Source: a bacterium (GTDB lineage Bacteria > Zhuqueibacterota > Zhuqueibacteria > Residuimicrobiales > Krinioviventaceae). From it: DNA of 64,000 bases. The notes beneath the pieces were generated by a model. It ran no database searches. It was not told where the DNA came from and saw only the letters and a program-made list of their open reading frames with translations. The number at the start of each line of letters is the position of its first letter. Within the stretch, counting starts at the first letter, position 1. Location: positions 64,001 to 128,000 of the forward strand of contig CAXXFV010000026.1 of the NCBI GenBank assembly GCA_963674595.2. The letters are read 5' to 3'. Shown here in pieces: positions 2,701 through 58,768 of this stretch. The translations under genes were made by a program, and so were the position numbers.

Positions 2701-2778
2701 TTTGTTCGCCCTTTTATTTAGTTTAACTGTCATTTCCTTTATCACTTTATAATGGTGCGGTAGAACCACACCCTGCAG

Positions 2779-3024
2779 TTAATTTTTTATATAGTCTAAC
2801 AACAAATCTACGCCCATCACTAACGTCGAAATACCAACTATCCCTGCTTTTATTTTTTTACTTATAATAGGTTCTGGTTTAAAATATTTATAATTTAGCA
2901 TTCGTTCTTCTTCAGGAGGAAATAATCTATCTGCAATAAATATAAAAACGAAAGATATAATACTGCTAGAAAATAAAAAGATAATCATGACAAGTTCTTT
3001 ATTTAGCTTCATTAAAATCTCCAT
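2779..3024 (-). CDS. Small 2-TM membrane protein, paralog 1
   Basis: 81 aa with two hydrophobic segments. Shares KKIKAGIVGISTLVMGV with 3228..3479. Confidence 0.75.
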   Translation of the reverse strand: MEILMKLNKELVMIIFLFSSSIISFVFIFIADRLFPPEEERMLNYKYFKPEPIISKKIKAGIVGISTLVMGVDLLLDYIKN

Positions 3025-3146
3025 ACTAAATTTTTAATCGTTCAAGGGTCTTTCGGGCTGTACAACCTGTGAATGATCACAATTTTTCGGGGTAGATACC
3101 CCGTCTAATGGCGCCCCGGGAAAGATTCCCGGGGCGAGCTGGAAAT

Positions 3147-3226
3147 GTAGGGTGTAGTTTTACTGCACCGATTAGCTGTTTTTCGCTTTATCACTTTGTA
3201 ATGGTGCGGTAGAACCACACCCTGCA
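3147..3226. repeat. REPIN, family I
   Basis: GTAGGGTGTAGTTTTACTGCACC ... GGTGCGGTAGAACCACACCCTGC. Confidence 0.85.
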
Positions 3227-3227
3227 A

Positions 3228-3479
3228 TTAATTTTTTAAATATTTTAACAACAGCCATACGCCCATCACTAACGTCGAAATACCAACTATCCCTGCTTTT
3301 ATTTTTTTACCTAATACAGTATCTCTGGTCCTAATAAAATATTTATATAGTTCCGATTTATTTTCATCAGGATGATAGAATTTATCCACTGTAAAAATAA
3401 AAACGAAAGCACTAATGCTGATAGAAAATAAAAAAATAATTGCCACGAGTTCTTCATTCAGCTTCACTAAAATCTCCAT
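3228..3479 (-). CDS. Small 2-TM membrane protein, paralog 2
   Basis: 83 aa, paralogous to 2779..3024. Confidence 0.75.
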   Translation of the reverse strand: MEILVKLNEELVAIIFLFSISISAFVFIFTVDKFYHPDENKSELYKYFIRTRDTVLGKKIKAGIVGISTLVMGVWLLLKYLKN

Positions 3480-3671
3480 ACAATATTCTTTGATCGTTCA
3501 AGGGACGTTCAGGCTGAACAACCTGTGAATGACCACAATATTTCGGGGTAGATACCCCGTCTAATGGCGCCCCGGGAAAGATTCCCGGGGCGAGCTGGAA
3601 TTTTTTGCATATAAATATACCTCACCGCACCCACCAACTCTGTCTGTGAACCAACAAAAATATAATGTTGT

Positions 3672-3890
3672 AACCAACACAATCTATTTCCTCGTGTGTT
3701 ATATGTGCCCGTTTTTATAATATGGTGGAAAATCAGCAGAACCGTCAGGATTTCATGTGCTCGACCCAATTATCCTGAATACAGTCCCTTCCCGCTGATA
3801 AGTAATTGTACGAATTTTGTATTGTCGGAACAAGGGATTTTTAAAAAATGTGGAAAATAAGTTTTTAGGACAAAATATTAAACCCCTGCA
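3672..3890 (-). promoter_or_regulatory. Repeated promoter + hairpin leader + GTTR-core module, copy A
   Basis: -35 TTGTTC (3833-3828), 17 bp spacer, -10 TACAAT (3810-3805). Nested hairpin at 3732-3799. Core GTTGGTT at 3678-3672. Homologous to 27085-27308. Confidence 0.75.
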
Positions 3891-3928
3891 ATGGTGCGGT
3901 AGAACCACACCCTGCAGTTGATCCCGAT

Positions 3929-7047: not shown

Positions 7048-7428
7048 CTATTGTATATAATTACTTTTCAAGCTATTTATGACAGGTTCCAGCATCTCAA
7101 TGGTAACAGGCTTTTCAAAAAACTTTAAATAATTGATAACGTTTGCTTTTTCAATGATATAGTCCGTTGCAAATCCCGACATAAAGATGACAGGAATGTT
7201 TATTTTTTCTTTTATTCTTTTTGCTGTTTCAATGCCGTCCATGCCGCCTGCCAGACTAATATCCATTAAAATGAGATTCGGCTTTTCAGTGAGAGCAATT
7301 TGAACCGCAATTTCACCTTTTGGAACCGGTTGTAAAGGTTCAACATCAATATCTCGCAAATCTTCACAAATGCTCATAGCTATCAGACATTCATCTTCAA
7401 CAACTAGTACTTTAAATTTCTGGGCCAT
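7048..7428 (-). CDS. Single-domain response regulator
   Basis: VLVVEDE, LILMDISL, MDGIE, KP. Confidence 0.93.
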   Translation of the reverse strand: MAQKFKVLVVEDECLIAMSICEDLRDIDVEPLQPVPKGEIAVQIALTEKPNLILMDISLAGGMDGIETAKRIKEKINIPVIFMSGFATDYIIEKANVINYLKFFEKPVTIEMLEPVINSLKSNYIQ

Positions 7429-7429: not shown

Positions 7430-9505
7430 TTAAACTCTTGGTTCGTAAAGTTCTTTTTTTAAAACAATATTACAACTGAAACCATTTCCATTTTTAAAAT
7501 CTACAATGCCGCCCAACTGATATTCGACTAGTTCAATAATTGTTTGAATTCCAAGACTGGACTGTTTTCGAATATCAAAATGGGGGGGTAACCCAACACC
7601 GTTATCTGAAAAACTCAGCAACAGTTCTTTTTGGCGGTTTTGATTCAGGGTTATATCAATTTTGCCCATACGATTATTGGGAAAAGCATATTTTATTGCA
7701 TTGGTTAAAAGTTCGTTAATAATTAAACCAAAAGCCATCGCAGTATCTAATAAAACGTTTATATCTTTGCCGTTGACAGATATTTCAATTTTTTCAAGCG
7801 ATGAAGGATAGGCCTTGCCGATTAATTTTACAAGGCCCTCGATATATTCTTTTAAATTTAAATGAGAAAGGTCCTGCGATTCGTAGAGTTTTTGATGAAC
7901 AAGCGCCATACTCTGTATTTTGTGTTCAATTTCTTTAAAAACCACAGAAACTTTATTGTTATTCAAACGCCGCGATTTTAAACGAAGTATTGAAGAGATA
8001 ACCTGCATGTTGTTTTTAGTGCGATGATAAAGCTCGCGGAGAAGAACTTCTTTTTCCCTGAGATTTTGACCCAGCTTTTCTTCAACCTGTTTTCTCGCGG
8101 TAATATCTTCAGTAAGGATAACGATACCGCCGACCGAACCGTCCGCCAGATTCCAAGGACGTATTTCTCCGCATAGCCATTGAACTGTACCGTCGATCCG
8201 TTCAAACTTGTTATCGTCTCCTTTTATCACTTCTCCATTCATTGCACGCTGATGCAGCAATTTCAATTCATCAGGCATTTCAGGGAAAATTTCATAATGT
8301 GATTTTCCAAGAAGATTATTTTCCTTTAGGTTGAAAACTGAATTCCATCGGCGGCTATGTGCAATGTATCGCATATCACGGTCGAACATGGCCAGGGCGG
8401 CAGGTGCATGTTCAACAAACAAACGCATTTTCTCTTCACTTTGCTGCAACTCTTGTTCATATCGCTTATACTCGGTGATATCCTTGGCAACACCTACAAT
8501 TGCATAGGGTTTGTCTTTATCGTCTTTGAGTACGTTTACCGTCATGAACGTGGGGAATGTTTCCCCGTTCTTTTTTTTATGACCGACTTCACCGCTATGG
8601 GTGCCAATCTTGAGGGCTTTATTAATAAAGGGTTTGACTTCATTTTTCATCTGTTCAGGAGTATGTGAAATGGCCATGTTCTCGCCAATAAGATTTGTGT
8701 GGTTTTCATACCCGTGCATCTTGCCCCAGGTTTCGTTTATAAAAACGAGCTTACCGTCCAGATCGGCAATTGCCATTCCTTCTGTTGATTGTTCGACAAC
8801 AGATGAAAGCATGTTTATTTTTTCTTCCGCTTTTAATCTTGCCAGGGAAGAGGCAACATGATCTGCAATTCGCCGGTACAAGGTTATTAATTCAATCGAA
8901 AACATACCTTTTCGATGATCGTTGAATTGTATCAAGCCAAATGTTTCTCCGGCAGTGCGGATCGGAATCAGCGCCACGGATTCGTAACCCTCCTGGCTGC
9001 AGAGATTCAGGCTGTATTCCTGCCGGTCAGCATCCGTCGTTGTTGTTAATAACTGGGTGGTGCTGTTAGCCCAGAAACAACCATCCTCCGTATAGAAATT
9101 TTTTGACGGATCAAATTTACCGCGTAAAATGTTACCGCACAGACCTTTCAGAATCGGCTTGCCGTCTTTGTCCCGTTTTATAGTGCCGTCATCATCATAT
9201 TGATACAGCGTATTTGCCTCTTTTACAAATTGTTTGGGAAATCCTTTTGTGGTAAAATAGGGAAAATCTTGTCCATCGCGAATCCGAATCCCCACAGCTT
9301 CGCAATTGGACCATTTTTTTATACGACCAATTAATCTGTTGATGAGCTGTTCTATGGTTTTGGAATTATTGACAAGTTGAAGCACCTCCAGAACTATAAG
9401 GTCTTCTTTTTCTTTTTGTTGGTATTCGGCCAGGGTCGTTTTTAGCTTTTGAACCTGTTGCTCTAATTCTTCAATTGTCCGCTTATCAGACATGCCGGTC
9501 TCCAT
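7430..9505 (-). CDS. GAF-PAS-PAS sensor histidine kinase (HisKA_2/HWE type)
   Basis: ELYHRTKNNMQ H-box, NELLTNAIKYAF, DNGVGL, two PAS/PAC segments. Confidence 0.92.
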   Translation of the reverse strand: METGMSDKRTIEELEQQVQKLKTTLAEYQQKEKEDLIVLEVLQLVNNSKTIEQLINRLIGRIKKWSNCEAVGIRIRDGQDFPYFTTKGFPKQFVKEANTLYQYDDDGTIKRDKDGKPILKGLCGNILRGKFDPSKNFYTEDGCFWANSTTQLLTTTTDADRQEYSLNLCSQEGYESVALIPIRTAGETFGLIQFNDHRKGMFSIELITLYRRIADHVASSLARLKAEEKINMLSSVVEQSTEGMAIADLDGKLVFINETWGKMHGYENHTNLIGENMAISHTPEQMKNEVKPFINKALKIGTHSGEVGHKKKNGETFPTFMTVNVLKDDKDKPYAIVGVAKDITEYKRYEQELQQSEEKMRLFVEHAPAALAMFDRDMRYIAHSRRWNSVFNLKENNLLGKSHYEIFPEMPDELKLLHQRAMNGEVIKGDDNKFERIDGTVQWLCGEIRPWNLADGSVGGIVILTEDITARKQVEEKLGQNLREKEVLLRELYHRTKNNMQVISSILRLKSRRLNNNKVSVVFKEIEHKIQSMALVHQKLYESQDLSHLNLKEYIEGLVKLIGKAYPSSLEKIEISVNGKDINVLLDTAMAFGLIINELLTNAIKYAFPNNRMGKIDITLNQNRQKELLLSFSDNGVGLPPHFDIRKQSSLGIQTIIELVEYQLGGIVDFKNGNGFSCNIVLKKELYEPRV

Positions 9506-9843
9506 CTACTATCTTGCGACAGTTAATGTCTCATTGTATTTTAATTTATACTCAGCATTCCAAAATTACAGGGGTCGTTCGGATTTAGTCTATCGCGAAA
9601 GATTTGTCAAAAACATATCATTAATAATTATTGCCTGATTTTTAATAGATCAGTGGCAGTATATCTTTATAAAAAAAATTATTATAATTATATTTCACTA
9701 AAATTATGTTTTAAAAAATATGTTATGCAACTTGATTAAATGGACGGTTGATGTTTTTGAAATGATTTTTGCAAGTGATAAGCAGCATGACTCGCCTTGT
9801 CCGGCAAGCGTGAATATGAAATAAGAGGAATTTAGTTTTGGGA

Positions 9844-9985
9844 TTCATACAATTTTTTCCTCTGGCGGGTATTAGAGTTCAAGTCTGCAAAACTTGAGAG
9901 TTAACTAACTCGTCCTAAAAACAGGCCTTTATGGATGTTAAAATAATAATACGAACTTATAACTATCGGTGCAAGGAGTTTTTGA
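9844..9985 (-). promoter_or_regulatory. Repeated promoter module, degenerate copy F
   Basis: TTGCAC (9974-9969)-N17-TATTAT (9951-9946). Retains the GTCCTAAAAACAGGCCTTTAT and ACAATTTTTTCCTC blocks. Confidence 0.55.
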
Positions 9986-10228
9986 AAATTTTTAAGGATG
10001 TTGGCTGATTTTAGTTCTTTTTACAAAAAACGTTTGCAAATATAAAAAATAGTTCTAGTTTTTATATAACATGCTGCTGCTTAATTTGTGGAACAGAGCA
10101 GCACAACACCCGGGGTGAATGCCTTTTTTATTTATGTTTTGATTTTTCTCCCGGGGCGAGCAGGAATAAATGATAATAATAACAGCAGTATAGCATAATT
10201 CTTCTTGAATGGAAAGGGAAAAGGAAAC

Positions 10229-10771: not shown

Positions 10772-10879
10772 TTCAATCAGAAATTATCTTTTGAAACAGT
10801 TATAGGATTAATCATATAATGGTGCGGTAGAACCACATCCTACGCACTGCGTTATAATGACAAGAATAAAAGGTGCATT

Positions 10880-11299: not shown

Positions 11300-11431
11300 A
11301 ATAGACAGTTATAATAACAGTTAACTGTTGTTTTCTTGATCACTTTGCAATGGTGTGGTAGAACCACTCCTTACAACTTTGTTTGAGGATTTGTCCGGAA
11401 ATTTACGAATGTTAATATATGAGGTTCGACA

Positions 11432-13392: not shown

Positions 13393-13526
13393 TGATCGTA
13401 CAAGGGTTCAACCCTTATTTGAGGGCTTGGCCCTCCTGTGATAAATATCTTTCTCAGTTAATTAAATATTTCGGGGTAGATACCCCGTCCTATTGTGCCC
13501 CGGGAAAGATTCCCGTGGCGAGCAGT
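13393..13526. repeat. Composite REP: family II (TGATCG-hairpin-GAGGGCTTGGCCCTC) plus family III (GGGGTAGATACCCC / CCCCGGG hairpin)
   Basis: Matches 36908-36961 and 3085-3144. Confidence 0.8.
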
Positions 13527-20275: not shown

Positions 20276-20300
20276 TGAATCCAAGTCAAACACGTGTTAC

Positions 20301-20432
20301 CCTTCGACTCCGCTCAGGGTGACATGGTTTAGAATTACCCTTCTGTCATCCCGAGCGGCGTCAAGGGATGTTCTTAAACCTGTCTCCTTTCCACCCTTCG
20401 ACTTCGCTCAGGGTGACACTGCTTCGGCTCGC
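20301..20432. repeat. REP-like cluster, family V (CCTTCGACTCCGCTCAGGGTGACA)
   Basis: Three alternating-orientation copies at 20301, 20344 and 20395. Also at 31479 with the shared AACACGTGT flank. Confidence 0.8.
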
Positions 20433-25913: not shown

Positions 25914-26057
25914 ATTTTGTTCCTCACTTTAATGTAGCATACAGTTCAACTATTATCTTCAATTAATTATATAATGCTGCGATAAAACCACAGCCTACTT
26001 GATGAATGTGTCTGTAAAGAAAACATGTAGTTCTTCACGTCCATATACATGAAATTG

Positions 26058-26991
26058 TTAAATATTTAATTGCATTAATAGACTGTAAGAATTTGAATAT
26101 ATTTGTTCATGTGAATGCAATAAGATTTGATTATTATAATAATCAACATCGCTTTTGTTTAATGTGTAATTTTTTTTATTTGACATATTTATCATTATGA
26201 GAGATCAATATAGCAAGTTTGGGTGATATTGGATAATAGATTTCCATATCTGTAACAGGTGTAGAAGTATTCGTATGTGAAGCTTTCGCCAAAATGTTAA
26301 TTACAGGTTGATCTCCTGTTATCAATGAATTAAAGGTATCATTCTCAAACAATGTTAATTTAAATTCATCCTTATGAATAAATAAGTAATTTGCTATATT
26401 TAAAGCAAACATGTGACTCAGCACATTCCAAATGTTATTTATGTTGATACTATTAGTATCTTTTATAGTTGATACTATATTTGATTTCATTTTTTTTGTT
26501 CTAAAGTATTGTGTACAAAGAAATATTAAAAATGTCAAGTACTCTTCATCTAAATTCACAAAATTAGTATTTTTATTTAGCAGTGAATGAAGATGTGATA
26601 TAGAATCTTGTTCAATTTTTGTATGAAAGTCTTCTGCTAGGTTATTTATAGCTATATCGATTTCTTTAAGATAATTATTATCGTTATAGCCATTTAAATC
26701 TAACAAATCAATCATCCTGAAAATTGAATTAAACAAAATTAAATAATCGTGTTGAAGTGGTTGTAAATGTTTTGGAGAATTATTAATAAAATGTTTTAAA
26801 AAATTGATATCATTTGTAGATAATCGTTTTAATCTATAGAAGTTCCTCATAACACCTACGCGATTTAATTTTGGATTGAATATCTTTTTATCTCTTAAAC
26901 AATATAATTTGTCATTTTTTGTCCATGGCTTCAAGTAATGTTGCCAAACATAATGTTGGTTTTTCTTTTTTTGTATGAATAATTTTTTCAT
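26058..26991 (-). pseudogene. DUF4238-domain protein, frameshifted near 26180
   Basis: NQHYVWQHYLKPW, QYFRT, ITGDQPV, YPISPKLAI. The family-like tail DVDYYNNQILLHSHEQIYSNS continues in another frame to TAA at 26058. Confidence 0.78.
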
Positions 26992-27084
26992 TTTAATAGA
27001 TATGTAACATAATATTAAACAAATCTGTTAGCTACCTAAAAATTATTAGATCGTGTCATAAAATTTAATTCAATATAATTTTCT

Positions 27085-27308
27085 AGCCAACACAGTCTTT
27101 CCTTATATGTGTTATTAAATCCCGCAGATAAATAATAAAGTGGAAAATCAGCAAAAGTATTATCAGGAACTCCCGTGCGCGACCAAATTATCCTGAAAAC
27201 AATCCTTTATAGCTGATAGCGAATAATACAAATTCTGAATTATCGGCGCAAGTGGTTTTTCAAAAATGTTGAAAACAAGCCAAGGGTCCAAAATTTCGAA
27301 CCCCTGCA
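27085..27308 (-). promoter_or_regulatory. Repeated promoter + hairpin leader + GTTR-core module, copy B
   Basis: TTGCGC (27251-27246)-N17-TATTAT (27228-27223). Hairpin at 27147-27217. Core GTTGGCT at 27091-27085. Confidence 0.78.
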
Positions 27309-31298: not shown

Positions 31299-31761
31299 TG
31301 TTTTAATATCTATTCAGTATTTATCTCATATAACAAATACGAATTAATTGTAGCAAATTTAATAAATTTATGTATTGTTACCAACAAATAATACCTGACA
31401 TTTTTTATTATACGACTCAAGGCTCCCCTTTGGGATCAATGAATAGGGTGTTGCACCACCAATCCGAACACGTGTGATCCTTCGACTCCGCTCAGGGTGA
31501 CACCGCTTCGACTCAGTCCTTGAGCAGAGCCGAAAGGCCGCTCAGCGTCCGCTTAATATCCGGGCTCGCTCAGTTGACACCACCCGTTTGCAGGGGATTA
31601 GGAATTCCTTACAAGCGGGGTGCAAATTATTTACAGGGAATTGCTGTTTTATAGATATAGAACATAGCAGAGACGTAAAATTTTACGTCTCTACAAATAT
31701 AACAAATATATCAATCTCAATAAAAACGATACAATTTACTACCTGTGCTAAAAGAATATAA

Positions 31762-37061: not shown

Positions 37062-38384
37062 CTATTTGAGCAAAATCATTGATTTTGTTTGACAAAAATT
37101 GTCTGCCAAAAGTTGATAATAATAGGTGCCGGCAGCTACTTTGTTACCGTGATAATTATCGCCATTCCAGTTGAGCGTATACATACCGGCTGACTGTCTG
37201 CCATCCACCAATGTTTTGACATGTTTTCCCGTAATATCAAACACTGAAAGACGGACGCGTGCATGCTGCGACAGTCTGTAACGAATGTTTGTTGACGGAT
37301 TAAACGGATTGGGATAGTTTTGCTCTAATTGAAAAACATCCGCAACCGCTTGTTGCGCGTCATCAATCCCGGCCGCCTGTTTAAACGGGACGCTTTGATA
37401 AGAATAATCACCGGTTTCGCAATTAACGGTAATTAATTTTCCTCCTTTATCCACATAATCGCCGCCATACCCGCCATAGCCGGTTGCCCGGCCATAAACC
37501 AGCTCAATACCGTCGAGTACGCCGCCATAGTCATTGACATGATCATGCCCGCAAAAACAGGCGCGCATGGTCTGCAAATTTTTAAACAGATTAAAGGCAT
37601 TGCTGTCATCCTGGCTGCCGCTATACACGTCTTCGAATTTAACACCCGGCGTACTGCCAACGTTCCAAACCGTTAAATATTGAGGCACCGGAATATGAAA
37701 AAATGAAAATGCGTGCGGGGCATACTTGTTGCCGTCGGCGCGATAACGTAAAAGTTCGGACATCCATGATTGCGCTGTAAAGGCGAGACCGGGTGAGCCG
37801 CCGCCGATGGATGAATTCATACAAATCAGGTCCCACAGCAAATCATCATCCTGGTTCCTTATTTCAATCACATAATTTCCGTTGGACGCACCGCCGCAAT
37901 AAAGTGAATGCGGTGCATTGGTAAAAGCCGCATGTCCGTTTTCGTAATTATTCAACTGATCATGATTTCCCCAGGTAAAGGCCCAGGGTATATTCAGGTT
38001 ATCGATAATGGAAATGGCCGTATGCATAAACTCTTCACCGCGTCCATCCGGATTATTATGCCAAAAATCACCGGTAACCAGGATAATGTCCGGTTTTGTA
38101 TATTCCACCAGCCCGGGCAGGTCGGCCATGGTTTGCCAGTCTATGTTTGTTGTTTTTGCAAAAAAGTGTATATCGGTTAGTTGTAATATTTTGAATTCAG
38201 ATGGATTGGCAATGACCAATTTGTTCGTTGCCGTTGCAAAGGCCGATGCGTTTGGTGTGAGATTGTTTGCAAAGATGTTGTTTTTCAAAACACTGTCCAT
38301 GCCCATGCCGGAAAGAACGGCTGTTTTTATAAAATTTCTGCGGGATAGTTGCATAAAGGTCCTTGTTTTGTTTGTCTTATTCAC
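37062..38384 (-). CDS. Calcineurin-like metallophosphoesterase (Dcr2-like) with Tat signal and C-terminal sorting domain
   Basis: SRRNFIK, TDIH, TGD, GNHD, GHDHVND, QNYPNPFNP...KSMILLK. Confidence 0.9.
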   Translation of the reverse strand: MNKTNKTRTFMQLSRRNFIKTAVLSGMGMDSVLKNNIFANNLTPNASAFATATNKLVIANPSEFKILQLTDIHFFAKTTNIDWQTMADLPGLVEYTKPDIILVTGDFWHNNPDGRGEEFMHTAISIIDNLNIPWAFTWGNHDQLNNYENGHAAFTNAPHSLYCGGASNGNYVIEIRNQDDDLLWDLICMNSSIGGGSPGLAFTAQSWMSELLRYRADGNKYAPHAFSFFHIPVPQYLTVWNVGSTPGVKFEDVYSGSQDDSNAFNLFKNLQTMRACFCGHDHVNDYGGVLDGIELVYGRATGYGGYGGDYVDKGGKLITVNCETGDYSYQSVPFKQAAGIDDAQQAVADVFQLEQNYPNPFNPSTNIRYRLSQHARVRLSVFDITGKHVKTLVDGRQSAGMYTLNWNGDNYHGNKVAAGTYYYQLLADNFCQTKSMILLK

Positions 38385-38431
38385 CCGTGATTTTACAAAA
38401 ATAATTATTTTTCACATTGTATATAATAATG

Positions 38432-38502
38432 AAAATACAAAAGAAAAACCTGGATTTCCAGCAGAAAAAAATTAAATGAGGTGTGAGGGAGAGGGATGAG
38501 CT
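38432..38502 (-). promoter_or_regulatory. Second repeated promoter module, copy 3
   Basis: AAAATACAAAAGAAAAACCTGGATTTCCAGCAGAAAA plus a G-rich tract, followed by a family IV REP. Confidence 0.55.
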
Positions 38503-38642
38503 GTTTTTTTATCGGGGCAGCACATGGTAGAGACGTAAAATATTACGTCTCTACCAAACATTACAAACAAATCAATTTCAATTAAAACACGGCGGTTACA
38601 TCACCCGGGGGTAAATGTCTTTCCGGGTTTTTGAAAATTTAT

Positions 38643-40889
38643 TTATTTGAGCAAAATCATTTTTTTAACCATATCCATACCACCGCCTTGCAGACGATAA
38701 AAATAGGTCCCTGAAGTCAGATGTGATGCGTCAAACGACACTTTATATGTTCCGCTTTGACGGTGATCGTCCACCAATACGGCAACCTGTTGTCCGCTAA
38801 GGTTGTAAACCCTGAGGCTGTAATGATCGTCTTTTGCAGCCCGGAAGGTGATGGTTGTGGATGGATTAAAGGGATTGGGATAGTTGTTAAACAATTCCAT
38901 CTCTTCCGGTACAGCATTGTCATTACGTTCAACGCTGTTTGTTTCTTTATTAATGACCAAGTTGTCAATTTCAACACCATCTTTATTAATTGCTTCAAGC
39001 TGTAATGTGTTGCCCGAAATGCTAATGTAGGTAAAATGGTATTCACAAACTCTAACCGTCACATGATCATAATCATAATATTGACCGCCCGGTTCCAATG
39101 AACAGCCGCCGCCGCCGGTTATTACATAACAGACATCATTTAAAATTCCCCGTTCATAATCGTGTGTATGGCCGTTAAATACCATATCTATATCGTACTG
39201 TTCAAAAAGCGGCACCAAATTGGTCCTGACGCCGATTTCACCGGGATATTCCGGCCAGCCTTCACTCCAGGGTGGTTTGTGAAAATAAACAATTGTCCAC
39301 TTTGTCTCTGCGCGCATCTCCGATTGCAGGTCCTGAACAAACCATTCGTATTGCGGCGTACCGGGAGAATAGGGGGAATCTGTATCCAGTGCAATAAAAT
39401 GTGCCGGTCCGTAATTGAATGAATAATAACGTTCTGTGCTGTCCGGATTGTTATGGGGTAAATAAAAAGAATTCAAATAGGTGCGTGCATTATCATGATA
39501 GGTGTCGTGATTACCAATGCAGGTAAAGATCGGCGTGTTTTTCAATATATCTTTATAGCCTGTGTAAAATATAAAGTCATATTCATCACCGATTGTCTGG
39601 TTCACATCACCTGCATGCAAACCAAAATCGTATTCTTTTTTCATGATTTTGTCTGTAACAGCCAGTTGGTTTTCTGAGCTGGCAACACCGGCAACATTGC
39701 TGCCTGAATCACCAATAATAAAAAATTTCACATTTTCAGTTGTTGCTGGTTTGGTTGTATAAAAATGTTCGGGCTCTGTCGTGATATCGTTAAACACGAC
39801 CCGATAAAAATATTTGGAGCCAGGCTGCAAACCGGTTATTTTTACCAAATGCTCATTTACCAATTCCTCATCGCTTATCGTATTGCTACAGGTTTCATCC
39901 TCTCCCCAATAAAGTGTTGTAGCTGTTTTTTGGAGGGTATTCCATTGAATAGAAATAGAATTCAAGGTCGGCAATACCACATGAGGATATCGGTCTACAT
40001 ACTCCCTGGGCTCTTCATCCTCTGCTAAATAGTAGATGCCATATTCACCCGTGGGCGGATTTGTTTCACTGATAGTCGCTCCAAAATCAGAATTGTAATA
40101 ACTTCTTACCGCCACATAATAATTACCGGAAGAAGGGAAGACGCCGGTCATTTGCGAAAAGGTACAATTAAGAGAACCGCTTGGCGTATCTACATTACCA
40201 AGATCATCATTTTCATCAACAATGTTTCCATCCGAATCAAACAGGGTGATATAGGTGTCCGTATCGCGGGGGTGTAAATCCAGAATCGGTGTGGCCCCTA
40301 TTGTATAGAATTTGCCTTCCTCTCCGGAAATTCTAAAATAATCAACATCATTCGCAGGATAAATGGCGCCATACACGGTATCATCTTCCGCAAGCGTGTT
40401 TGAGAATGCAGCATGGGCCAATGTATTGTCCGGTTCATGAACAAGCAGCCGAGTCTGCGACCTTCCACCGGCCAGTCTTACTTTATAGGCACCTGTTGTA
40501 TTTTTAGTGTTGAATATTTTTGCATAAAAAATTCCGCTCGTAGCGGGCACATACCCGGACAGGCGAAAGTTGTCATTTGCATTTCGTCCGGCTACATTTG
40601 ATGTTAAAATATTATTCGAATTTCCCTGCACGAAAAGTTCGATATTCGGACTGACACCATCGGCATTTTCAATGCTGGTTATATAATACATACTTGAATC
40701 ATTCATTTCTATAGAAAAATAATCAATGTCAACTGTTGAGCTAAACTGAGCTGAAATTACGGAAGAGTCACCGAGAGCTAAAACATTTGCCTGACTTGTT
40801 GTGTTGTTTGGTTCAACTTCGTTGTATTGCCCGAATAATGACAGGGGCAAAATTAATACTAGAATTGTTGTAAATATTCTTTTTGCCAT
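38643..40889 (-). CDS. Purple acid phosphatase-like metallophosphoesterase with PPC/FN3 domains and C-terminal sorting domain
   Basis: EVEPNN and HEPDN PPC repeats, GLQPGSKYFYRV, GDSG, GD, GNHD, GHTHDYER, NYPNPFNP. Confidence 0.9.
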   Translation of the reverse strand: MAKRIFTTILVLILPLSLFGQYNEVEPNNTTSQANVLALGDSSVISAQFSSTVDIDYFSIEMNDSSMYYITSIENADGVSPNIELFVQGNSNNILTSNVAGRNANDNFRLSGYVPATSGIFYAKIFNTKNTTGAYKVRLAGGRSQTRLLVHEPDNTLAHAAFSNTLAEDDTVYGAIYPANDVDYFRISGEEGKFYTIGATPILDLHPRDTDTYITLFDSDGNIVDENDDLGNVDTPSGSLNCTFSQMTGVFPSSGNYYVAVRSYYNSDFGATISETNPPTGEYGIYYLAEDEEPREYVDRYPHVVLPTLNSISIQWNTLQKTATTLYWGEDETCSNTISDEELVNEHLVKITGLQPGSKYFYRVVFNDITTEPEHFYTTKPATTENVKFFIIGDSGSNVAGVASSENQLAVTDKIMKKEYDFGLHAGDVNQTIGDEYDFIFYTGYKDILKNTPIFTCIGNHDTYHDNARTYLNSFYLPHNNPDSTERYYSFNYGPAHFIALDTDSPYSPGTPQYEWFVQDLQSEMRAETKWTIVYFHKPPWSEGWPEYPGEIGVRTNLVPLFEQYDIDMVFNGHTHDYERGILNDVCYVITGGGGCSLEPGGQYYDYDHVTVRVCEYHFTYISISGNTLQLEAINKDGVEIDNLVINKETNSVERNDNAVPEEMELFNNYPNPFNPSTTITFRAAKDDHYSLRVYNLSGQQVAVLVDDHRQSGTYKVSFDASHLTSGTYFYRLQGGGMDMVKKMILLK

Positions 40890-41113
40890 AATCGCGTACC
40901 TTTTTATTCTTGTTAAATTCGACTGTTTTGAAATTCTGATTATTATCTGCAGTTGATAATTGTCGATCACCAAAAAACATATATTAATTCAAATTTCATT
41001 TACGCTTAAATTTAGACGGCCTCCAAGCCTGTTTGTTTTAAATGACTCCTTTCTCAATTAGATGTGTCAACGTTCCTGTTTGCTTGTAATTTTTTGTAGT
41101 TTGCTATGTGTCC

Positions 41114-42781
41114 TTATTTTATATAAAACAACTTTATTACGGACTGAAACTGCCCGGCTTTTAACCTGAGCATATACATACCGCCCGGCAAATGACGTGC
41201 CTCGAAATTAATCTTGTGCTGTCCCGCCGGGACTGTCTCATCCAGCAGGATCGCCACACTTTGCCCCCGGATGTTAAATACATCAACTCTTACATGTACT
41301 GTTTTCGGCAGAGTAAATTGTATGGTGGTCGATGAATTAAAGGGATTGGGATAGGCATCGCTGAGTTTAAATCTGCCAGGCTGATCAGCAGAACTGTTTT
41401 CAGCTTCAACTTCGTTATAGTCATCATCCAGAATCGAAAAAACCACATGGGCAATATCGGTATTGTCAATATACTCTCCATAAACCGGGTCTGTGGCTAT
41501 TACACAGGAGGCAAAGCGGCTGCTTCCCAATCCTTTTGCATGGAATGGTATGAGCAGGTTCGAATGATCATTTGTATAATATCTGAAATCAGGCATTTTG
41601 CCGGGACCATTGTTCCTGATCGGATTCCAGGTATTTGGCGCGTGAGAACCGGGGCCCCACAGATAACCGCTTTCATGGTCACCTGTTACAATCAGCAGGG
41701 TTTCATCCCAATTACTGTTGGCCTCAACCCATGCGACCACCGACTCGAATGTTTTGTTAAAGTTATCCATTTCTTCAATCATCCGGCCCAGCACATTTTC
41801 TTCATTGGCCCAATCGACAGCCCCTCCCTCGATCATAAGAAAAAGACCATCCGGATCATTATCTAAAACATTCAATGCCGCTTTGGCCATCATTTCCAGC
41901 GTCGGTACATTCCTGTTAAACGCTATTTTGTAAGGCGGTTCGGTGCTGTTTACCGCCGGGTGAAACCATCTTTGCTCCTGAAGGGTTTTATAAACCTGGG
42001 CAACACCAATCACCCGTTTGGGTGTATCGCCCTGTGCCAGATTTTGAAATTCCTGTTTTTCCTGAATCAGGGTCCAGGGATCATCTATGTTATCTCCATC
42101 CGCGTCGCCGCCGATTGTCCCGGCAATTAATCCATTCCACACGGAACTATTACCGACGTATTGGTAATCAAAATTGCTCCATAGTTTAATTCCGTCATTG
42201 CTATATAGCGGGTGGCCGCAGCCCATTATAACATCTATGGCGCTCTGCGTAATCATCTCCTGAGCCATGTCTGCATAATTATACCGGCTTATGTTATGGG
42301 CCACAAACCCGGCCGGTGTGGCATGCGAAATCTGTACACTTGTCACCACACCTGTTGCCATTCCACAGGATTCGGCGCGTTCGAGAATATGTTCCACCGG
42401 CTGATGAAAGGCGTTCAAGCCGATGCCCCCGTCGTATGTTTTTATTCCGGTGGATATGGCCGTGGCCCCAGCCGCAGAATCGGTAAAATCATACAGGGGA
42501 TAGTCGAAATCAGCCCAGGCCGCCCGGCTGTCATACCCGCCCCCGAGTGACCAGGTGCTCATGGCATATTTTACGTCCCAGTTCGTATAAACCGGAGCGG
42601 AACCGTTCCAATACGTTGTAGCGGCAATATGATTGAATCCCCAGCCATCGGCTATCATAATAATAATATTTTTCTTTCGGGCCTGTACAGTTGTTACAAA
42701 AATCAGTGCTATCATCACAATCGTATGGATCGGTCGCAGGTGGATGTTGCTTCTCTTCAATAGGCTAAACTCCCTTATCAA
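41114..42781 (-). CDS. phoA: Alkaline phosphatase (PhoA family) with C-terminal sorting domain
   Basis: IADGWG, TDSAAGATA, HATPA, MIEGGAVD, TGDHESG, AYPNPFN. Confidence 0.9.
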   Translation of the reverse strand: MIREFSLLKRSNIHLRPIHTIVMIALIFVTTVQARKKNIIIMIADGWGFNHIAATTYWNGSAPVYTNWDVKYAMSTWSLGGGYDSRAAWADFDYPLYDFTDSAAGATAISTGIKTYDGGIGLNAFHQPVEHILERAESCGMATGVVTSVQISHATPAGFVAHNISRYNYADMAQEMITQSAIDVIMGCGHPLYSNDGIKLWSNFDYQYVGNSSVWNGLIAGTIGGDADGDNIDDPWTLIQEKQEFQNLAQGDTPKRVIGVAQVYKTLQEQRWFHPAVNSTEPPYKIAFNRNVPTLEMMAKAALNVLDNDPDGLFLMIEGGAVDWANEENVLGRMIEEMDNFNKTFESVVAWVEANSNWDETLLIVTGDHESGYLWGPGSHAPNTWNPIRNNGPGKMPDFRYYTNDHSNLLIPFHAKGLGSSRFASCVIATDPVYGEYIDNTDIAHVVFSILDDDYNEVEAENSSADQPGRFKLSDAYPNPFNSSTTIQFTLPKTVHVRVDVFNIRGQSVAILLDETVPAGQHKINFEARHLPGGMYMLRLKAGQFQSVIKLFYIK

Positions 42782-46229: not shown

Positions 46230-46488
46230 AAAAGGTCCCTGGTAATAATATTTTTCAGGTGAAATATAAGGTTGTATCCGGTATTTAAAGTACCGCCAAC
46301 CATGTTTATACAAAATAAATAAAATTTTTGAATTAATTAAGTATTATGTAAAAAACTTGATCCAAACCTGATGTATGCGGCTTTTTATTTAATCGTGCAA
46401 TGGTTTGGTAAAACTGCACCATACGACTTTGTTGAGGCTATGTTTAAAAACGCCCCGGTGGAATCCCGGGGCGGCAAAGTGTATACGA

Positions 46489-47946: not shown

Positions 47947-48086
47947 ACCTCTTTTTTAATGTGAAACGAAAATGTTATCGGACATTCGACTAATCGTTGC
48001 AGGGTGCAGTAAAAGCACACCTTGTGGCTAAAAATGTTTTAAATTAAAAATATCCTGATTCGTTAACACAAAAATCGTTAAGGTAA

Positions 48087-48458
48087 TCAAGTGTCTTTTA
48101 AAAGCCACTCAACCGCCTGATCAAATGAATGAAATGTCTCTACTTGGTAACCGACATTGACGGCAACGGTCTCTGAAAATTTATGTGACGTGTCGCCCTT
48201 AGCAATGACAACAGCTACGCGAATATCACGAGGGAACCCAATACTCGGAATGTCACTGTGAGCAAAATTGTATTCTTTCGTCGTACCCATGACATTGGGT
48301 GCATCGCGAAAATCGGAAATTATCCGTTTAATGCCTGTTTTTTTATAAAGTTTTACATATTCTTGTGTCAGTTCTATAATGACCTTTCTGGTTAACGGCA
48401 CGTTTACTTTACCCATAATATAGGTGTTATCATCTGATATTGTTATTTCGAAATCCAT
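48087..48458 (-). CDS. Hypothetical STAS/SpoIIAA-like protein
   Basis: IISDFR, RVAVV, FSETVAVN, FHSFDQAVEWL. Confidence 0.7.
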   Translation of the reverse strand: MDFEITISDDNTYIMGKVNVPLTRKVIIELTQEYVKLYKKTGIKRIISDFRDAPNVMGTTKEYNFAHSDIPSIGFPRDIRVAVVIAKGDTSHKFSETVAVNVGYQVETFHSFDQAVEWLLKDT

Positions 48459-48662
48459 ACTTTTTCTCCGCTAATACAATATTGACCAGACTGTGGATTT
48501 GATTCATCTTTTTGTGCTGACAAGAATTTTAAGTTTTTTTTCATATGTAATTCCAAATCAAGGATTTATTTTTCATGTCGACTGTTTGCCGGGGCCTCAA
48601 CAAGCGGTATGACAGTTAATTGAAATGTTTGTTCATGATTTAATAGTGACAATATTTTCTCA

Positions 48663-49361
48663 CTAGTTTTTCGCATGTTTTAGCCAGATAATATCGGCTT
48701 CCAGTTTGCAAATTCGGCTGATAGCTGCTGCAAATTTTTCGCCCTTGAAAAGAAAAGGTTCCAGGGCGGTTGTTTGTATGTGAACCTTGCCGGGCTGGTC
48801 CATTTCCGGGTCCGAAAGCAGGGCCGCGATATGATGACCCACAGCGCCCGGTTCGTCCTCTGCAACGTATAATGTGTGGTTTACACCCGCACGTGACAAT
48901 TTTTTACCGGGACGTGAGATCATCCATTCAATCCACCCGCCATCGGGAAAAAACAGTGAGCCTCCCTGTTCCTGTAAATTGATCTTTGCCAGGGCAAGCG
49001 GTTTTAAACCAAATGATTCAAGATGGTCCCTGACATCTTTGTTGTTCGATGCGGATGCCAGTGAGAACCAGGCTGAGGAAGGCAGCATCGTATCCGCACC
49101 TTTTACCAATGGACCGGTCTCTGAGGATCTCAAACTTGACCATAAATGAAGCTCCACGCTTCGGCCGGTTTCGTAACCATTAAAAGAATTTTTGCTGCAA
49201 ACCTGTGCCAACAGCGCCACATAACATCGTGATTTCTCATCCAGCGTGAGAGTGTGGTGTGAGGGGATATTTTGAATCCGTTTGGCCGGAAGACGTATCA
49301 TAATTATGTTTTCAGTCCCCACTTTACGGGATAATGTTACCGAATCAGATCGTTTACTCAT
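48663..49361 (-). CDS. Hypothetical protein
   Basis: 232-aa ORF directly downstream of promoter module copy E. Confidence 0.6.
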   Translation of the reverse strand: MSKRSDSVTLSRKVGTENIIMIRLPAKRIQNIPSHHTLTLDEKSRCYVALLAQVCSKNSFNGYETGRSVELHLWSSLRSSETGPLVKGADTMLPSSAWFSLASASNNKDVRDHLESFGLKPLALAKINLQEQGGSLFFPDGGWIEWMISRPGKKLSRAGVNHTLYVAEDEPGAVGHHIAALLSDPEMDQPGKVHIQTTALEPFLFKGEKFAAAISRICKLEADIIWLKHAKN

Positions 49362-49384
49362 TGTTGGTCCATTTTTATGTAGAG

Positions 49385-49502
49385 AACATCACCTAAAGGA
49401 CATAAGAAATTTTCATACTTAACCAAATTGTCCTAAAAAAAATCGTTTATGACTGATATTAGAATAATACAAATTCTGTTGTACCGGCGCAAGAGGGTTT
49501 TG
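49385..49502 (-). promoter_or_regulatory. Repeated promoter module, degenerate copy E
   Basis: TTGCGC (49492-49487)-N17-TATTAT (49469-49464). Remnant ACCAAATTGTCCTAAAA and CTGAT blocks. Confidence 0.6.
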
Positions 49503-49667
49503 AATAAAAATTATCCTTTTTCCTGATTTGTTGTGGTGTGAAGCGTTGCCGGAACGTTTGTTTTTTATATAAAAACCGCCCCGGCAGGATTCCCGGTGCG
49601 GTTGGAATAGTTTATTTTACAAGAGATGCAGCACATGGTAGAGGCACGATTCATGGCGCCTCTGCGA

Positions 49668-51623
49668 CTATCTTATTAACATCAGTTTTATTGTCTGTGT
49701 GCAAGTCCCGGCTTGAATGTGGCACATATAAACGCCGCTTGTCATTAAATTGCCGTTCTCATCTTTTCCATTCCATTGTACTTTATGTAGTCCTTCCTGA
49801 TGGATTTTGTCTTCAAGCACCTTTATTTGCTGACCAAGCATATTGTAAATTGAAATTCTGACTTGCACGGATTTAGGCAACGCATAACTAATTGTAGTGG
49901 CCGGATTAAACGGGTTGGGATAGTTTTGTTCAAGCGAAAATTCTCTGATTATATTATCCTCTGTTTCAACGGACACAACCGGTTCACCGACAATAATCGT
50001 GTGTGGGTCCGACCAATCTGTTTCAACGGCGCTCTCGTTTTTTGCCATAACCCTGATATCAAAATACCCTTCTGTTGCATAGGCATGCGAAAACTCGAAT
50101 GTAGAGGCATTTGCATTTAATTCAACATAATCAGATATTGTTCCGTCGCCCCAGTCAATTTTCATTTGCACTTGTTTCTGAGTGTTGTCTGTCGCTGTTG
50201 CCTGGACCGTTACCACCTGGCCGACCTCTGCCGAATCTGACGGTTCACACCAGCAAATTGCCGCTGCATTGGGGTCCGCACCGCAGGTCCCATCCCAGCG
50301 AATATCTTCACAATTCATGGAAGGGAGATTGTCTGCCAGTTCCTGCATTTTGGTTCCACTGATAATTCCCGGATTTTCGTTCAAATATAAAAGCTTTAAT
50401 TTATCCAAATGATACAATCCTGGTAAATCTTCATGGTCAAGCAGATTACCGTCAATCCCCAGATTTTGCAAATTAACCAGGTTTTGTAAATGATTGACGT
50501 CTTTTAAATGAAGGTTGGCAGACCAAAAACTTGTTAATTCTGTCAAATTGGCAACTGGTGATATATCCTGAATAGGATTATTAGTAAGGGCCAGAGTTTT
50601 TAAATTACTCAAATTTTGAACGGCCGTAATATCCCTGACTTTGTTATTATCTATTTGAAGACCAATGAGATGGGTTAAATTTTGTACGGGAGTAATATCT
50701 TTTATTTGATTGTTCCTTATTGTCAGGTATTCCAAATCTGTCATGTTTTGTGTGGCAGAAATATCGGTTATTTGATTTTCAGAAAGAATAAGCTGATATA
50801 TTCCCGTCAGGTTTTGCAAGGGAGAAATATCGCTTATCTGGTTATATGACAATTTTATATTTTCCAGGCCGGGTATATTTTGCAGCGGCGTTATATCGCT
50901 TATCTGGTTTGATGATGCAAAAAGCAGCTTTAGTTGATTTAAATTTTGTAATGGAGATAAATCACTGATGGTAGTACGTTCAATATAAAGTGCTGTTAAA
51001 CTGGATATATTTTGCACGATAGAAAGGTCACTTAGATCTATACCGTTAATCATCAGCGTTAGCAAGTTGGGTAGATTTTGTATGCCCGTAAAATCGGTGA
51101 TTGGATTCCTGTCAAGGTAAAGATATTGCAAATTTACAAGATTTTGCAGTGCGGTCAGGCTGGTGATTTGATTTTGTATCAGGCTGATATTAGACAGGTT
51201 GGTTAAATTTTGCAGCGGTGTTATATCAACAATATTATTTTTATAAAGCTCCAGGCGGGTCAGGCTGGTCAATCCTTGCAAAGGAGTCAGGTCAACTATC
51301 AGATTATTGTTAAGGTAAAGTTTTGTCAGATTTACGGCATATTCCAGGCCCGTTAAATCTGATATGCTGTCATCTTCGGCTGTAAAAGATGTTAATGTTT
51401 CCATGTCCGTATCGTAAATATCGCCGCTCGGTTTTGCCAGCGTTTCCCGGACAGCCTGTTCCAGATGGGAATCATTAAAAACCACAACAATCCCATCATT
51501 CACTGAATTTTTTACGGCATGTTTGTTATAAGGATCTGAAAAACCATTTGCTGTTTGCGCGGATACCATAGTGATCAAAAATAAAGGAATTAAACAGGCG
51601 ATTAATAGTCTTAATGCTTTCAT
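49668..51623 (-). CDS. Internalin-like leucine-rich repeat protein with PKD and C-terminal sorting domain
   Basis: Many 22-aa LRRs (NQISDISPLQNL), DWGDG, QNYPNPFNP. Confidence 0.93.
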   Translation of the reverse strand: MKALRLLIACLIPLFLITMVSAQTANGFSDPYNKHAVKNSVNDGIVVVFNDSHLEQAVRETLAKPSGDIYDTDMETLTSFTAEDDSISDLTGLEYAVNLTKLYLNNNLIVDLTPLQGLTSLTRLELYKNNIVDITPLQNLTNLSNISLIQNQITSLTALQNLVNLQYLYLDRNPITDFTGIQNLPNLLTLMINGIDLSDLSIVQNISSLTALYIERTTISDLSPLQNLNQLKLLFASSNQISDITPLQNIPGLENIKLSYNQISDISPLQNLTGIYQLILSENQITDISATQNMTDLEYLTIRNNQIKDITPVQNLTHLIGLQIDNNKVRDITAVQNLSNLKTLALTNNPIQDISPVANLTELTSFWSANLHLKDVNHLQNLVNLQNLGIDGNLLDHEDLPGLYHLDKLKLLYLNENPGIISGTKMQELADNLPSMNCEDIRWDGTCGADPNAAAICWCEPSDSAEVGQVVTVQATATDNTQKQVQMKIDWGDGTISDYVELNANASTFEFSHAYATEGYFDIRVMAKNESAVETDWSDPHTIIVGEPVVSVETEDNIIREFSLEQNYPNPFNPATTISYALPKSVQVRISIYNMLGQQIKVLEDKIHQEGLHKVQWNGKDENGNLMTSGVYMCHIQAGTCTQTIKLMLIR

Positions 51624-51668
51624 TATTTAATCTCTCCTTATTTTATTACCAGACGATATAAATTTGCA

Positions 51669-52070
51669 TTAATCTCTAAATATTAAACCATCAAATGTAG
51701 AAAATTGAATTTTTTCATTTTGAGGTTCAAACCTGATACAAACGGTAAGAGTATCGTTGAGATAGAATGCGTATTTTTTCTGCAAATTATAATTAAATAT
51801 TTCAATCTGCAGGGTATAGTTTCCTTGTGGATAGACTTTAGGGCCACTGCCCCATGCCGCGCTGATGGTATAATTTGTAGAGACACGTTTTTGAACAAGC
51901 AAGTCATTGTTTATCTCTATTCTTACGGAATCGTTTTTGAATGCCGATTCCAAATCAACAGCCAAAACAGCGTTTTTAATAATTTCAGGCTCTGTTGATT
52001 TTGTGCAGTTGAATATGAGAACCGAAATTATGGCAAAAACCAGAATAAAAACCAGAAATTTTGATTTCAT
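51669..52070 (-). CDS. Hypothetical lipoprotein
   Basis: Lipobox IFNC followed by TKSTEP. Confidence 0.75.
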   Translation of the reverse strand: MKSKFLVFILVFAIISVLIFNCTKSTEPEIIKNAVLAVDLESAFKNDSVRIEINNDLLVQKRVSTNYTISAAWGSGPKVYPQGNYTLQIEIFNYNLQKKYAFYLNDTLTVCIRFEPQNEKIQFSTFDGLIFRD

Positions 52071-52135
52071 AAAATTACCTGTATATAACGTTTTATTATT
52101 TCCAGGGTCCGGAATGAGGGACCGGCCTGTGAATT

Positions 52136-52540
52136 TTAGCCCGGCTTTTCATCATTCAATGGTGTTTTTCTTGGTTTCATGAGTGCGAGTACACCATATA
52201 TCAGGGCAAACAGTCCGAACAGTATGACCATAGACCACCCGCGTGAATTGGCGCCGGCGTATTGGCCGCGAACGGCCATAACACAACACAGCGCGTTCGT
52301 GATGAACAGGGACAGCGATATTTTCCACTGTAAATTGTGGTCGCTTGTATCTCTGAAAAGCCAAATGAGCAGACCCAGTCCCAGAAGCGTGGCTCCCCAG
52401 AACTGATAAACCACCAGTCCCATAGGGGGTAAACTGACATCATAATGTGCTAAAAGCTGGTCCGGCATGACCATACAGGCAATTCCGGACACGGCGGCCA
52501 GTACGGCATTTATGGTTAATAAAACTTTAAACTTTATCAT
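52136..52540 (-). CDS. Hypothetical 4-TM membrane protein
   Basis: Start MIKFKV after AGGAG. Four TMs. Confidence 0.75.
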   Translation of the reverse strand: MIKFKVLLTINAVLAAVSGIACMVMPDQLLAHYDVSLPPMGLVVYQFWGATLLGLGLLIWLFRDTSDHNLQWKISLSLFITNALCCVMAVRGQYAGANSRGWSMVILFGLFALIYGVLALMKPRKTPLNDEKPG

Positions 52541-52661
52541 AACTCTCCTGAAATTCAAAATCTTCGGTTTTTGGAGTAGAGTCTTTAGGGGCTGTTTTAT
52601 GGCACTATTTAATTTTTTCTATTTATCTCTGAATGGTACGCGATATTACCGTACTCTTTGC

Positions 52662-52800
52662 TACCCGTTTTAATATCCTGATTGAAAATCCGCAGGACTG
52701 CCAGAACCTTGTATGCTCGACCAAATAATTTTTAAAAACAGTCCTTTACGGCTGATAATGAATTATACAAATTCTGTGATATTGGCGCAAGGGGTTTTTG
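52662..52800 (-). promoter_or_regulatory. Repeated promoter + hairpin module, copy D
   Basis: TTGCGC (52790-52785)-N17-TATAAT (52767-52762). Stem AGGACTG/CAGTCCT and loop TTGGTCGAGCA. Confidence 0.72.
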
Positions 52801-53144
52801 ATATAAATATTTAAATCCCCGAGGAGTTGTTTTTTGTTTGCAGTTGCTAGTGCAGCATCATTAAAATGGCTGGTCTACTGATTATCATTAAAAGAGTTCG
52901 ATATTAAAAAACCAGACTACACGTTTCAAATATCGCAAGTGCCGTTTGAATTAACAGGCCCTATTATTTGAAATAACAAACCTGCTTTTGGTATTTATTC
53001 TTTTTCGGACTCGACATCTTTTATTTGTTAGAGGCATTTTCTACCCGACTGAAAGCCCAGTTGCAGGATGGACCATTTTGGCCCATCATTTAATTGATAT
53101 AAAAATCTGTGGTGTTTGTCTGTACACATCTTTTCGTGTTATTT

Positions 53145-53177: not shown

Positions 53178-53179
53178 GA

Positions 53180-58752: not shown

Positions 58753-58768
58753 AACTTTTATCAACCAA

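Follow-up and report, generated by a model that had tools for sequence, protein, structure and literature searches.

A recurrent promoter and predicted structured leader, probably a portable expression unit, in front of unrelated genes of an uncultured bacterium

Six co-oriented copies of one block within the window

The window analysed here is a stretch of 64,000 nucleotides from the genome of an uncultured bacterium of the phylum Zhuqueibacterota (assembly GCA_963674595.2, positions 64,001 to 128,000 of contig CAXXFV010000026.1, hereafter C26), in which six similar non-coding blocks, labelled A to F, precede genes of different kinds. What sort of element sets the same promoter-like sequence and the same putative RNA leader before unrelated genes, and how might it have come to be there? 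A sequence-only reading had described the blocks as a dispersed expression platform, and had suggested that the leader could be a new riboswitch, attenuator or non-coding RNA. The core of that description, a dispersed and co-oriented promoter-like block with a partly covarying hairpin before unrelated genes, withstood the analysis, whereas the riboswitch option did not.

Inspection of each sequence confirmed that the six blocks are real, homologous and all located on the minus strand. A profile search found no other copy within the window, and a de novo repeat search of the window independently recovered parts of the family (repeats D8, D11 and D17). By hand count, all six carry promoter-like hexamers, TTG(TTC/CGC/CAC) and TA(CAAT/TTAT/TAAT), separated by a spacer of exactly 17 nt. 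The blocks do form a recurrent unit, but the 150-220 bp originally assigned to it are too short, the conserved unit spanning ~320 bp (from ~-65 to ~+255). Against the longer of the two profiles described below, the six copies match with E=3e-17 to 2e-45, and a covariance model of the hairpin, R1, recovers 5 of the 6, copy F being missed at E<=0.001.

Copy A (3605-3860, minus strand) is a full module, which matches profile positions 7-264 in the nhmmer search with E=1.7e-45 and R1 with 65.1 bits at 3721-3808. Its -35 element TTGTTC lies at 3828-3833, its -10 element TACAAT at 3805-3810 and its three-helix hairpin (predicted fold -21.8 kcal/mol) at 3732-3799, and the 3' domain contains GAGGAA at ~3687-3692 and TTG at 3680-3682. 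Past the module, a double GC hairpin (3537-3595) is followed by an 83-aa ORF (3228-3479). Copy F (9782-9995, minus strand; nhmmer E=3.4e-17) retains an intact promoter, TTGCAC-17-TATTAT, along with a degenerate hairpin and 3' domain, and is situated upstream of two genes, one for a PAS/HisKA_2 histidine kinase (7430-9505), the other for a response regulator (7048-7428). Copy B (27072-27277, minus strand; profile positions 8-210, E=3.2e-45; R1 92.2 bits at 27136-27226) comprises the promoter, the hairpin and part of the 3' domain, and precedes the gene for a DUF4238 protein (26176-26991). The three remaining copies, also on the minus strand, are copy E (49368-49508; profile positions 18-160, E=3.1e-22; R1 64 bits), with a promoter and a weakened hairpin directly before a 232-aa ORF (48663-49361); copy D (52657-52812; profile positions 12-167, E=7.1e-24; R1 53.5 bits), with a promoter and a hairpin before a 140-aa ORF (52136-52558); and copy C (60867-61058; profile positions 14-205, E=9.6e-23; R1 55.3 bits), in which the promoter, a hairpin with a different inner stem and a partial 3' domain precede the gene for a 614-aa T9SS-sorted protein (58769-60613). 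According to Pfam, the downstream genes are indeed unrelated, with the DUF4238 protein (B), the kinase and response regulator (F) and the T9SS-sorted protein (C) standing beside small proteins without a family (A, D and E).

The outer stem ATCAGC/GCTGAT of A-D begins 5-6 nt past the -10 element, with one mismatch in D, and is followed by a middle stem that varies by copy. The nested hairpin proposed for these four copies is the minimum-energy fold in A, B and C, but only partly so in D, and copy E has a minimum-energy fold of another kind; the fold z-scores of A, B, C, D and E are -1.06, -2.54, -4.13, -1.52 and +0.71, respectively. The inner stem TCAGGA/TCCTGA in A and B as well as the apical loop common to A, B and D are as first described, and the tail TTTTCCAC is present in A, B and C. 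Neither the 64-kb window at the gathering score nor 20 full copies at E<=1 produced an Rfam match, consistent with the suggestion that the leader belongs to no known family.

Positions 37062-42781 and 49668-60613 of the window are taken up by a run of paralogous T9SS-sorted proteins that have C-terminal sorting-domain repeats in common. A 651-aa ORF (49668-51623) contains at least 7 copies of a repeat with a period of 66 nt (50602-51242), which looks like a 22-residue protein repeat, and in contigs of DNA runs X4 and X8 position 56232 is joined to 60526 with 11 nt of microhomology, two T9SS-sorted proteins being deleted.

A family of 124 copies in front of unrelated genes

The first profile, built from the six window copies, gave 77 genome matches at E<1e-5, and reading of these matches showed that conservation runs ~150 nt past the extent originally assigned. 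With the longer profile (288 positions, from 32 long copies), a genome-wide search yielded 124 copies at E<=1e-3, distributed over 20 of the 37 contigs. The complete module consists of a promoter, TTGCNN-17-TAnnAT, a three-helix hairpin and a 3' domain with GAGGAAG and TTG. The copies fall into four length classes: 26 are promoter-only, 19 contain promoter and hairpin, 17 extend to the Shine-Dalgarno/TTG site and 62 are full, with a leader of ~255 nt. Accordingly, 98 of the 124 extend past the promoter part of the profile and 93 reach profile position 140, that is, through the hairpin. The pattern TTGNNN/spacer/TAnnnT was found by regular expression in 122 copies, the spacer being exactly 17 nt in 117 and the sequence starting with TTGC in at least 115 of them. 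In 70 of 75 copies, 5-6 nt separate the -10 box from the outer stem. The module promoters were not listed by a generic scan for the Escherichia coli consensus TTGACA/TATAAT, TTGCNN having too few positions in common with TTGACA, and the number of promoter-like sites in 48000-62000 of the window was not clearly above that in shuffles (60 versus 46.7, sd 6.7). The density of modules is highest on contigs C13, C29, C26 and C18, with 5.5-11.7 copies per 100 kb compared with 0-4.5 on the others.

The modules are strongly oriented towards the genes that follow them. Within 900 nt downstream, the longest open frame lies on the strand of the module in 119 of 124 copies, whereas upstream the split is 94 versus 30. 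This bias is strongly consistent with the block acting as a promoter and is the strongest indirect sign of such a role. By blastp, the first ORFs downstream of the 124 modules separate into 106 clusters, and a Pfam tally of 67 of them, those in the loci examined, returned 100 families, of which Por_Secre_tail/T9SS sorting is the commonest (7), with PAS (3), Gp49 toxin (2), RHS (2) and restriction enzymes also represented. Judged by these annotations, the module-led genes are mostly accessory and of island type.

Toxin-antitoxin-like gene pairs, one of a Gp49/HigB-like gene with an HTH gene and the other, which is duplicated, for proteins of 112 and 97 aa, lie between modules on contig C29 (47770-50840; L023:7770-10840). 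A gene for a 64-aa HTH protein was considered as a general regulator and rejected: it has 5 close copies, 4 of them ~80 nt upstream of a module, and marks one subfamily only.

Recurrence of a promoter before non-homologous genes has a precedent in the putative mobile promoters, or promoter re-use, surveyed by Nijveen, Matus-Garcia and van Passel 2012 (PMC3575422), in which most families were pairs with ~92% identity. Both there and here, non-homologous genes of one genome are preceded by non-coding sequence that is homologous between them, carries a promoter and perhaps a regulatory RNA, and has no match in Rfam. Similar upstream non-coding sequence before non-paralogous genes of one genome, the hallmark of that class, is represented here by 124 copies before 106 clusters, although the survey applied a cut-off of 80% identity over 50 nt and the present family is defined by profile homology. 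What appears to be new, compared with those pairs, is a single family of ~124 diverged members with a long leader, ~255 nt, that is predicted to be structured. Further differences are the use of the module's translation start by one gene and the association with variable islands and prophage-like elements, which are described below.

Pairing within the leader hairpin

The three helices of the hairpin were written down by hand, RNAalifold on MAFFT and hmmalign alignments having given no structure or fragments only. In a MAFFT alignment of 61 copies that was not fitted to the model, 79.0% of the cells pair, compared with 24.5-46.4% when the partners are slid, and as many covarying pairs as observed, or more, occur in 46 of 500 shuffles. 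In the R1-fitted alignment (62 distinct rows), 83.1% of the cells pair, both sides change in 15 of 19 pairs and none of 500 shuffles reaches any of five measures, although these values come from paralogues of one genome, the relatedness of which inflates covariation, and from stems that are also conserved in sequence. Cells with G-U or U-G outnumber those with A-C or C-A by 99 to 57. This excess is a mild indication that pairing matters on the sense RNA, but it is modest enough to suit a hairpin that is a palindrome at the DNA level as well.

An unguided scan for covarying column pairs revealed no further helix, and a pseudoknot between loop and tail (UGGU/ACCA) did not rise above shuffles. 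Two other candidates were discarded, namely a G-quadruplex in the G-rich tail, which fits only 3 of 53 copies, and a LexA-box-like CTGT-N8-ACAA within the hairpin, in which, by eye, the CTGT is not conserved. The sequence conservation among the copies looks like recent common ancestry, not like a ligand pocket maintained across taxa.

A start site in the 3' domain and its use by an integron integrase

The 3' domain contains a Shine-Dalgarno-like GAGGAAG, a TTG 5-6 nt further on and a conserved CATATTCCTG able to pair with GAGGAAG. In the resulting Shine-Dalgarno-sequestering hairpin, 92.1% of the cells pair, with hardly any variation, and 68 of 500 shuffles reach its number of covarying pairs. 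The frame that opens at the module TTG is short, ranging from 1 to at least 79 codons, and the actual genes carry Shine-Dalgarno sites of their own 50-300 nt further on. A conserved leader peptide was rejected: the information per codon position is 0.83/1.00/0.90, with no relaxation at the third position, and several copies contain early stops.

One gene does use this site. A full-length integron integrase (IntI) is encoded at positions 115820-116812 of contig C3 (locus L063:7820-8812, minus strand) and scores 454 bits against TIGR02249, for which the cut-off is 265; no other genome match exceeds that cut-off. The only canonical start codon of this IntI is the module TTG, so that the module would be its own predicted promoter and leader, and the GAGGAAG/TTG start site is, on the evidence of this reading frame, real in at least one case. 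Orthologues were found in 19 of 40 relatives and mostly align only from residues 10-15 of the IntI (range 6-22 among near-full-length matches), and the module is absent at nine inspected intI loci of relatives. By this comparison, the module was placed before intI within this lineage. The opposite derivation, of the module from the 5' region of intI, was rejected, since the IntI of the relatives lack both the N-terminal residues and the module.

The integrase gene is co-oriented with its neighbours, and the intergenic regions further downstream contain attC-like AAC...GTT imperfect palindromes. At the start of contig C6, another module is followed by a decayed intI-like remnant.

Apparent restriction to one species

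Searches with R1, which has 80 matches in its own genome, gave no match in 40 relatives, of which 18 share the family but belong to 10 other genera and 22 share the order, and likewise none in a sample of 150 phylum genomes, for which stricter filters were used and 28 candidates per genome were scored. Searches of genome, metagenome and viral contig collections with two long patterns revealed no real homologue, and one full copy compared by blastn in distant mode with phage and plasmid collections gave no match. Two pattern matches in metagenomes (L061 and L062) proved to be chance, there being no module around either. Contigs of four DNA runs from other studies that are 90-99% identical to the window do carry modules. 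As far as these searches go, the family appears to be species-restricted.

Modules as proposed junctions between retained leader and exchangeable cargo

For 83 of the 124 copies, the flanks are unique on both sides. At least 7 modules are located at an end of a ~13-15 kb element that itself occurs in multiple copies, and form its junction with variable cargo: homology between copies of the element stops at ~+213 of the module, and the cargo beyond differs. The element, whose copies are 72-95% identical, resembles a prophage or a phage satellite with the module at its cargo end, and it encodes Phage_integrase (a tyrosine integrase), YqaJ, RecT, Lin1244_N, ParB-like, HTH_8 and GpA_ATPase terminase-like proteins. 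A check for the end of a mobile element, proposed with the original description, thus had a divided outcome, in that these 7 or more copies do sit at the end of a larger element, whereas the 83 copies with unique flanks, together with the lack of terminal inverted repeats in 5 of 5 copies, do not support such an end.

One copy of the element extends from position 116782 to ~132400 of contig C3, and others were located on C10 (51944-67143), C9, C5, C25 and C29, with two more on C3. Integration of the prophage-like element into the module was considered and dismissed, the integrase end lying instead beside a tRNA-like fragment; a tRNA gene search of 28 kb at the element found none.

Comparison of the window with contigs of other runs places several breakpoints at or near modules. 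In runs X3 and X8, 1811 nt upstream of copy D are replaced by 28 nt (joint 52803 to 54615), and past the 3' end of D (edge 52661) a contig of X3 continues with ~1.7 kb of unlike sequence. The match of a contig of X9 to the window stops at 60916, the 3' end of the copy C hairpin, and a contig of X4 joins 48546 to 49598, copy E and its gene being absent. Modules are repeats, and some of these breakpoints in metagenome contigs could be assembly artefacts. With this proviso, we read the modules as recombination-prone junctions between a retained promoter and leader and an exchangeable cargo. No mechanism for first placing a module at a new site was found.

Alternative explanations

The best reading of these observations is that the blocks represent promoter re-use of an extreme kind and not a riboswitch. 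More specifically, they are probably a species-restricted promoter and leader module of ~320 bp, a portable expression unit that is re-used through recombination in variable islands and prophage-like elements. A ligand-sensing riboswitch of a new class, or a transcription attenuator, was one competitor: the predicted leader RNA is structured, shows some covariation and lacks an Rfam match, and its Shine-Dalgarno-like sequence can pair with a downstream UUCCU. Multiple copies before diverse genes are also known from the c-di-GMP riboswitches. The confinement of the family to this genome, with no R1 match in 40 relatives and 150 phylum genomes and no real match in the pattern scans of genome and metagenome collections, nevertheless makes a riboswitch unlikely. 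In the copies read, moreover, no hairpin with a U-tract is evident by eye as a terminator after the leader, the Shine-Dalgarno sites of the actual genes lie 50-300 nt further on, where helix P3 varies, the 3' domain shows no corresponding variants (alignments, by eye) and the pseudoknot between loop and tail is unsupported. Taken with these points, the riboswitch or attenuator is very improbable. The module might alternatively be a selfish miniature mobile element, similar to MITEs or Correia elements, with an outward promoter and no dedicated host function. Its high copy number, species restriction, size of ~320 bp, stable hairpins and enrichment in variable islands (5.5-11.7 versus 0-4.5 per 100 kb) would suit such an element, and Correia and ERIC elements also carry promoters (PMC3575422). 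We consider this origin improbable, as the 5 copies inspected have only inconsistent AT-rich matches in place of consistent terminal inverted repeats, the module has no sharp 5' boundary and its 3' end falls into four length classes, a same-strand gene lies ahead in 119 of 124 copies, unlike what random insertion would produce, and the copies have diverged (~70-80% identity to the intI copy) yet kept their pairing. The known Correia, ERIC and REPIN sequences share with the module that they are dispersed, hairpin-forming intergenic repeats which may supply promoters and are co-transcribed with their neighbours, but the module differs in its strict co-orientation with the downstream gene, in being truncated to varying degrees at the 3' end and in copies that have diverged far more, as well as in having no terminal inverted repeats.

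The module of the integron integrase invites the idea that modules are promoter-bearing ORF-less cassettes or parts of attC sites moved by that integrase. The genome encodes one bona fide IntI with a module as its own predicted promoter and leader and with attC-like sites downstream, co-oriented series of small, unrelated genes, toxin-antitoxin pairs among them, look like cassette arrays, and promoter-bearing ORF-less gene cassettes are known (PMC6557892). As in the integron platform with Pc and attI, a promoter serves changeable, unrelated and co-oriented cargo, and the integrase is present with the same leader; the difference is that many dispersed promoters take the place of a single platform promoter and that, by a crude heuristic, no attC sites flank the modules. 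That heuristic, based on R''/R' boxes and L-box pairing, gave 393 attC candidates genome-wide versus 619 in the reversed-sequence control, placed a candidate within 500-700 nt of only 8 of the 124 modules and showed no enrichment on module-rich contigs, and the outer stem of the hairpin lacks an AAC/GTT core. An integron-borne origin is therefore extremely improbable. Another rival is a regulon, in which one trans factor (CsrA, a NusG paralogue or a small RNA) would bind the loop and ACGGGA-like motifs and co-switch ~100 accessory operons, the integron integrase included. The most conserved positions of the leader are the apical-loop motif, ACGGGAU and ACGAGGAAG, each with a GGA, and genes for one CsrA (86.9 bits) and for two proteins of the NusG family are present in the genome. 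According to PMC4347634, CsrA recognises GGA both in the loops of hairpins and at Shine-Dalgarno sites and has the SELEX consensus RUACARGGAUGU, in which ACA is invariant. Compared by eye with this consensus, the GGA motifs of the leader lack the invariant ACA; two of them lie inside stems, no factor specific to this genome emerged as far as tested, and the 26 promoter-only copies among the 124 would escape such control. Regulation of this kind is rather unlikely, and it would be compatible with a portable unit, not exclusive of it.

How a portable unit could work

If the module is a portable expression unit, its geometry and orientation suggest that RNA polymerase would start 5-8 nt after the -10 element, so that every transcript would open with the three-helix hairpin. 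The 5' stem-loop of ompA and the STAB-SD of cryIIIA are 5'-terminal stabilisers of the mRNAs of single genes. The module resembles them in its stem-loop at the predicted 5' end and in a Shine-Dalgarno-like sequence far upstream of the actual start codon, and differs from these single-gene leaders in standing before ~100 genes. By analogy with STAB-SD, the 5' hairpin, together with a ribosome that loads at the short GAGGAAG/TTG frame upstream, may protect and tune the mRNA, and the apical loop, along with the repeated ACGGGA-like motifs, is a possible handle for a trans-acting factor. Spread of the module and exchange of its cargo would proceed by recombination, both within variable islands and, in prophage- or satellite-like elements, at the end that holds the cargo, whereas transposition and integron attC recombination would not be the routes of spread.

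A bolder version, which we regard as doubtful, makes the module the 'cargo adaptor' of the lineage's mobile DNA: a single factor would jointly license ~100 mobile or accessory operons, among them toxin-antitoxin pairs, restriction systems, T9SS cargo and the integron integrase, and the 320 bp would provide the homology for swapping genes, amounting to an attC-free system of promoter-carrying cassettes. Either way, one promoter with a predicted structured leader stands before ~2% of the genes of this genome, nearly all of them accessory. Were the leader functional, it would constitute a natural plug-in unit for the expression and regulation of newly acquired genes, and a handle on the control of the flexible genome, including the integron integrase, in an uncultured bacterium; were it not, the module would still clearly mark the recombination hot spots of variable islands.

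Other small repeats of the module-rich contigs

Three further repeats occur in the window. A hairpin motif of 36 nt (stem GGTGYGG/CCGCACC, loop TTCT) is found in one orientation, mostly just past stop codons, at 1457-1492, 2748-2783, 3197-3232, 3887-3922, 10815-10850, 11346-11381, 25970-26005, 46396-46431 and 47997-48032; genome-wide, nhmmer gave 26 matches, all on C26, C29, C13, C18 and C10, and the window contains no Rfam match to it. A REP-like repeat with CCTTCGACTCCGCTCAGGGTGAC is present at 20281-20333, 20375-20427 and 31459-31511, often lies just upstream of modules and has 34 genome matches on C29, C13, C26 and C9. A unit of 59 nt with two GC-rich hairpins and no U-tract occurs at 3081-3139, 3537-3595 and 13465-13523 and has 20 genome matches, almost exclusively on C13, C29 and C26; at copy A, the 59-nt unit separates the leader from the 83-aa ORF. 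Finally, positions 2723-3600 form a tandem duplication with a period of ~450 nt, which contains paralogous ORFs of 81 and 83 aa (without a Pfam match), each accompanied by the 36-nt and 59-nt hairpin motifs.
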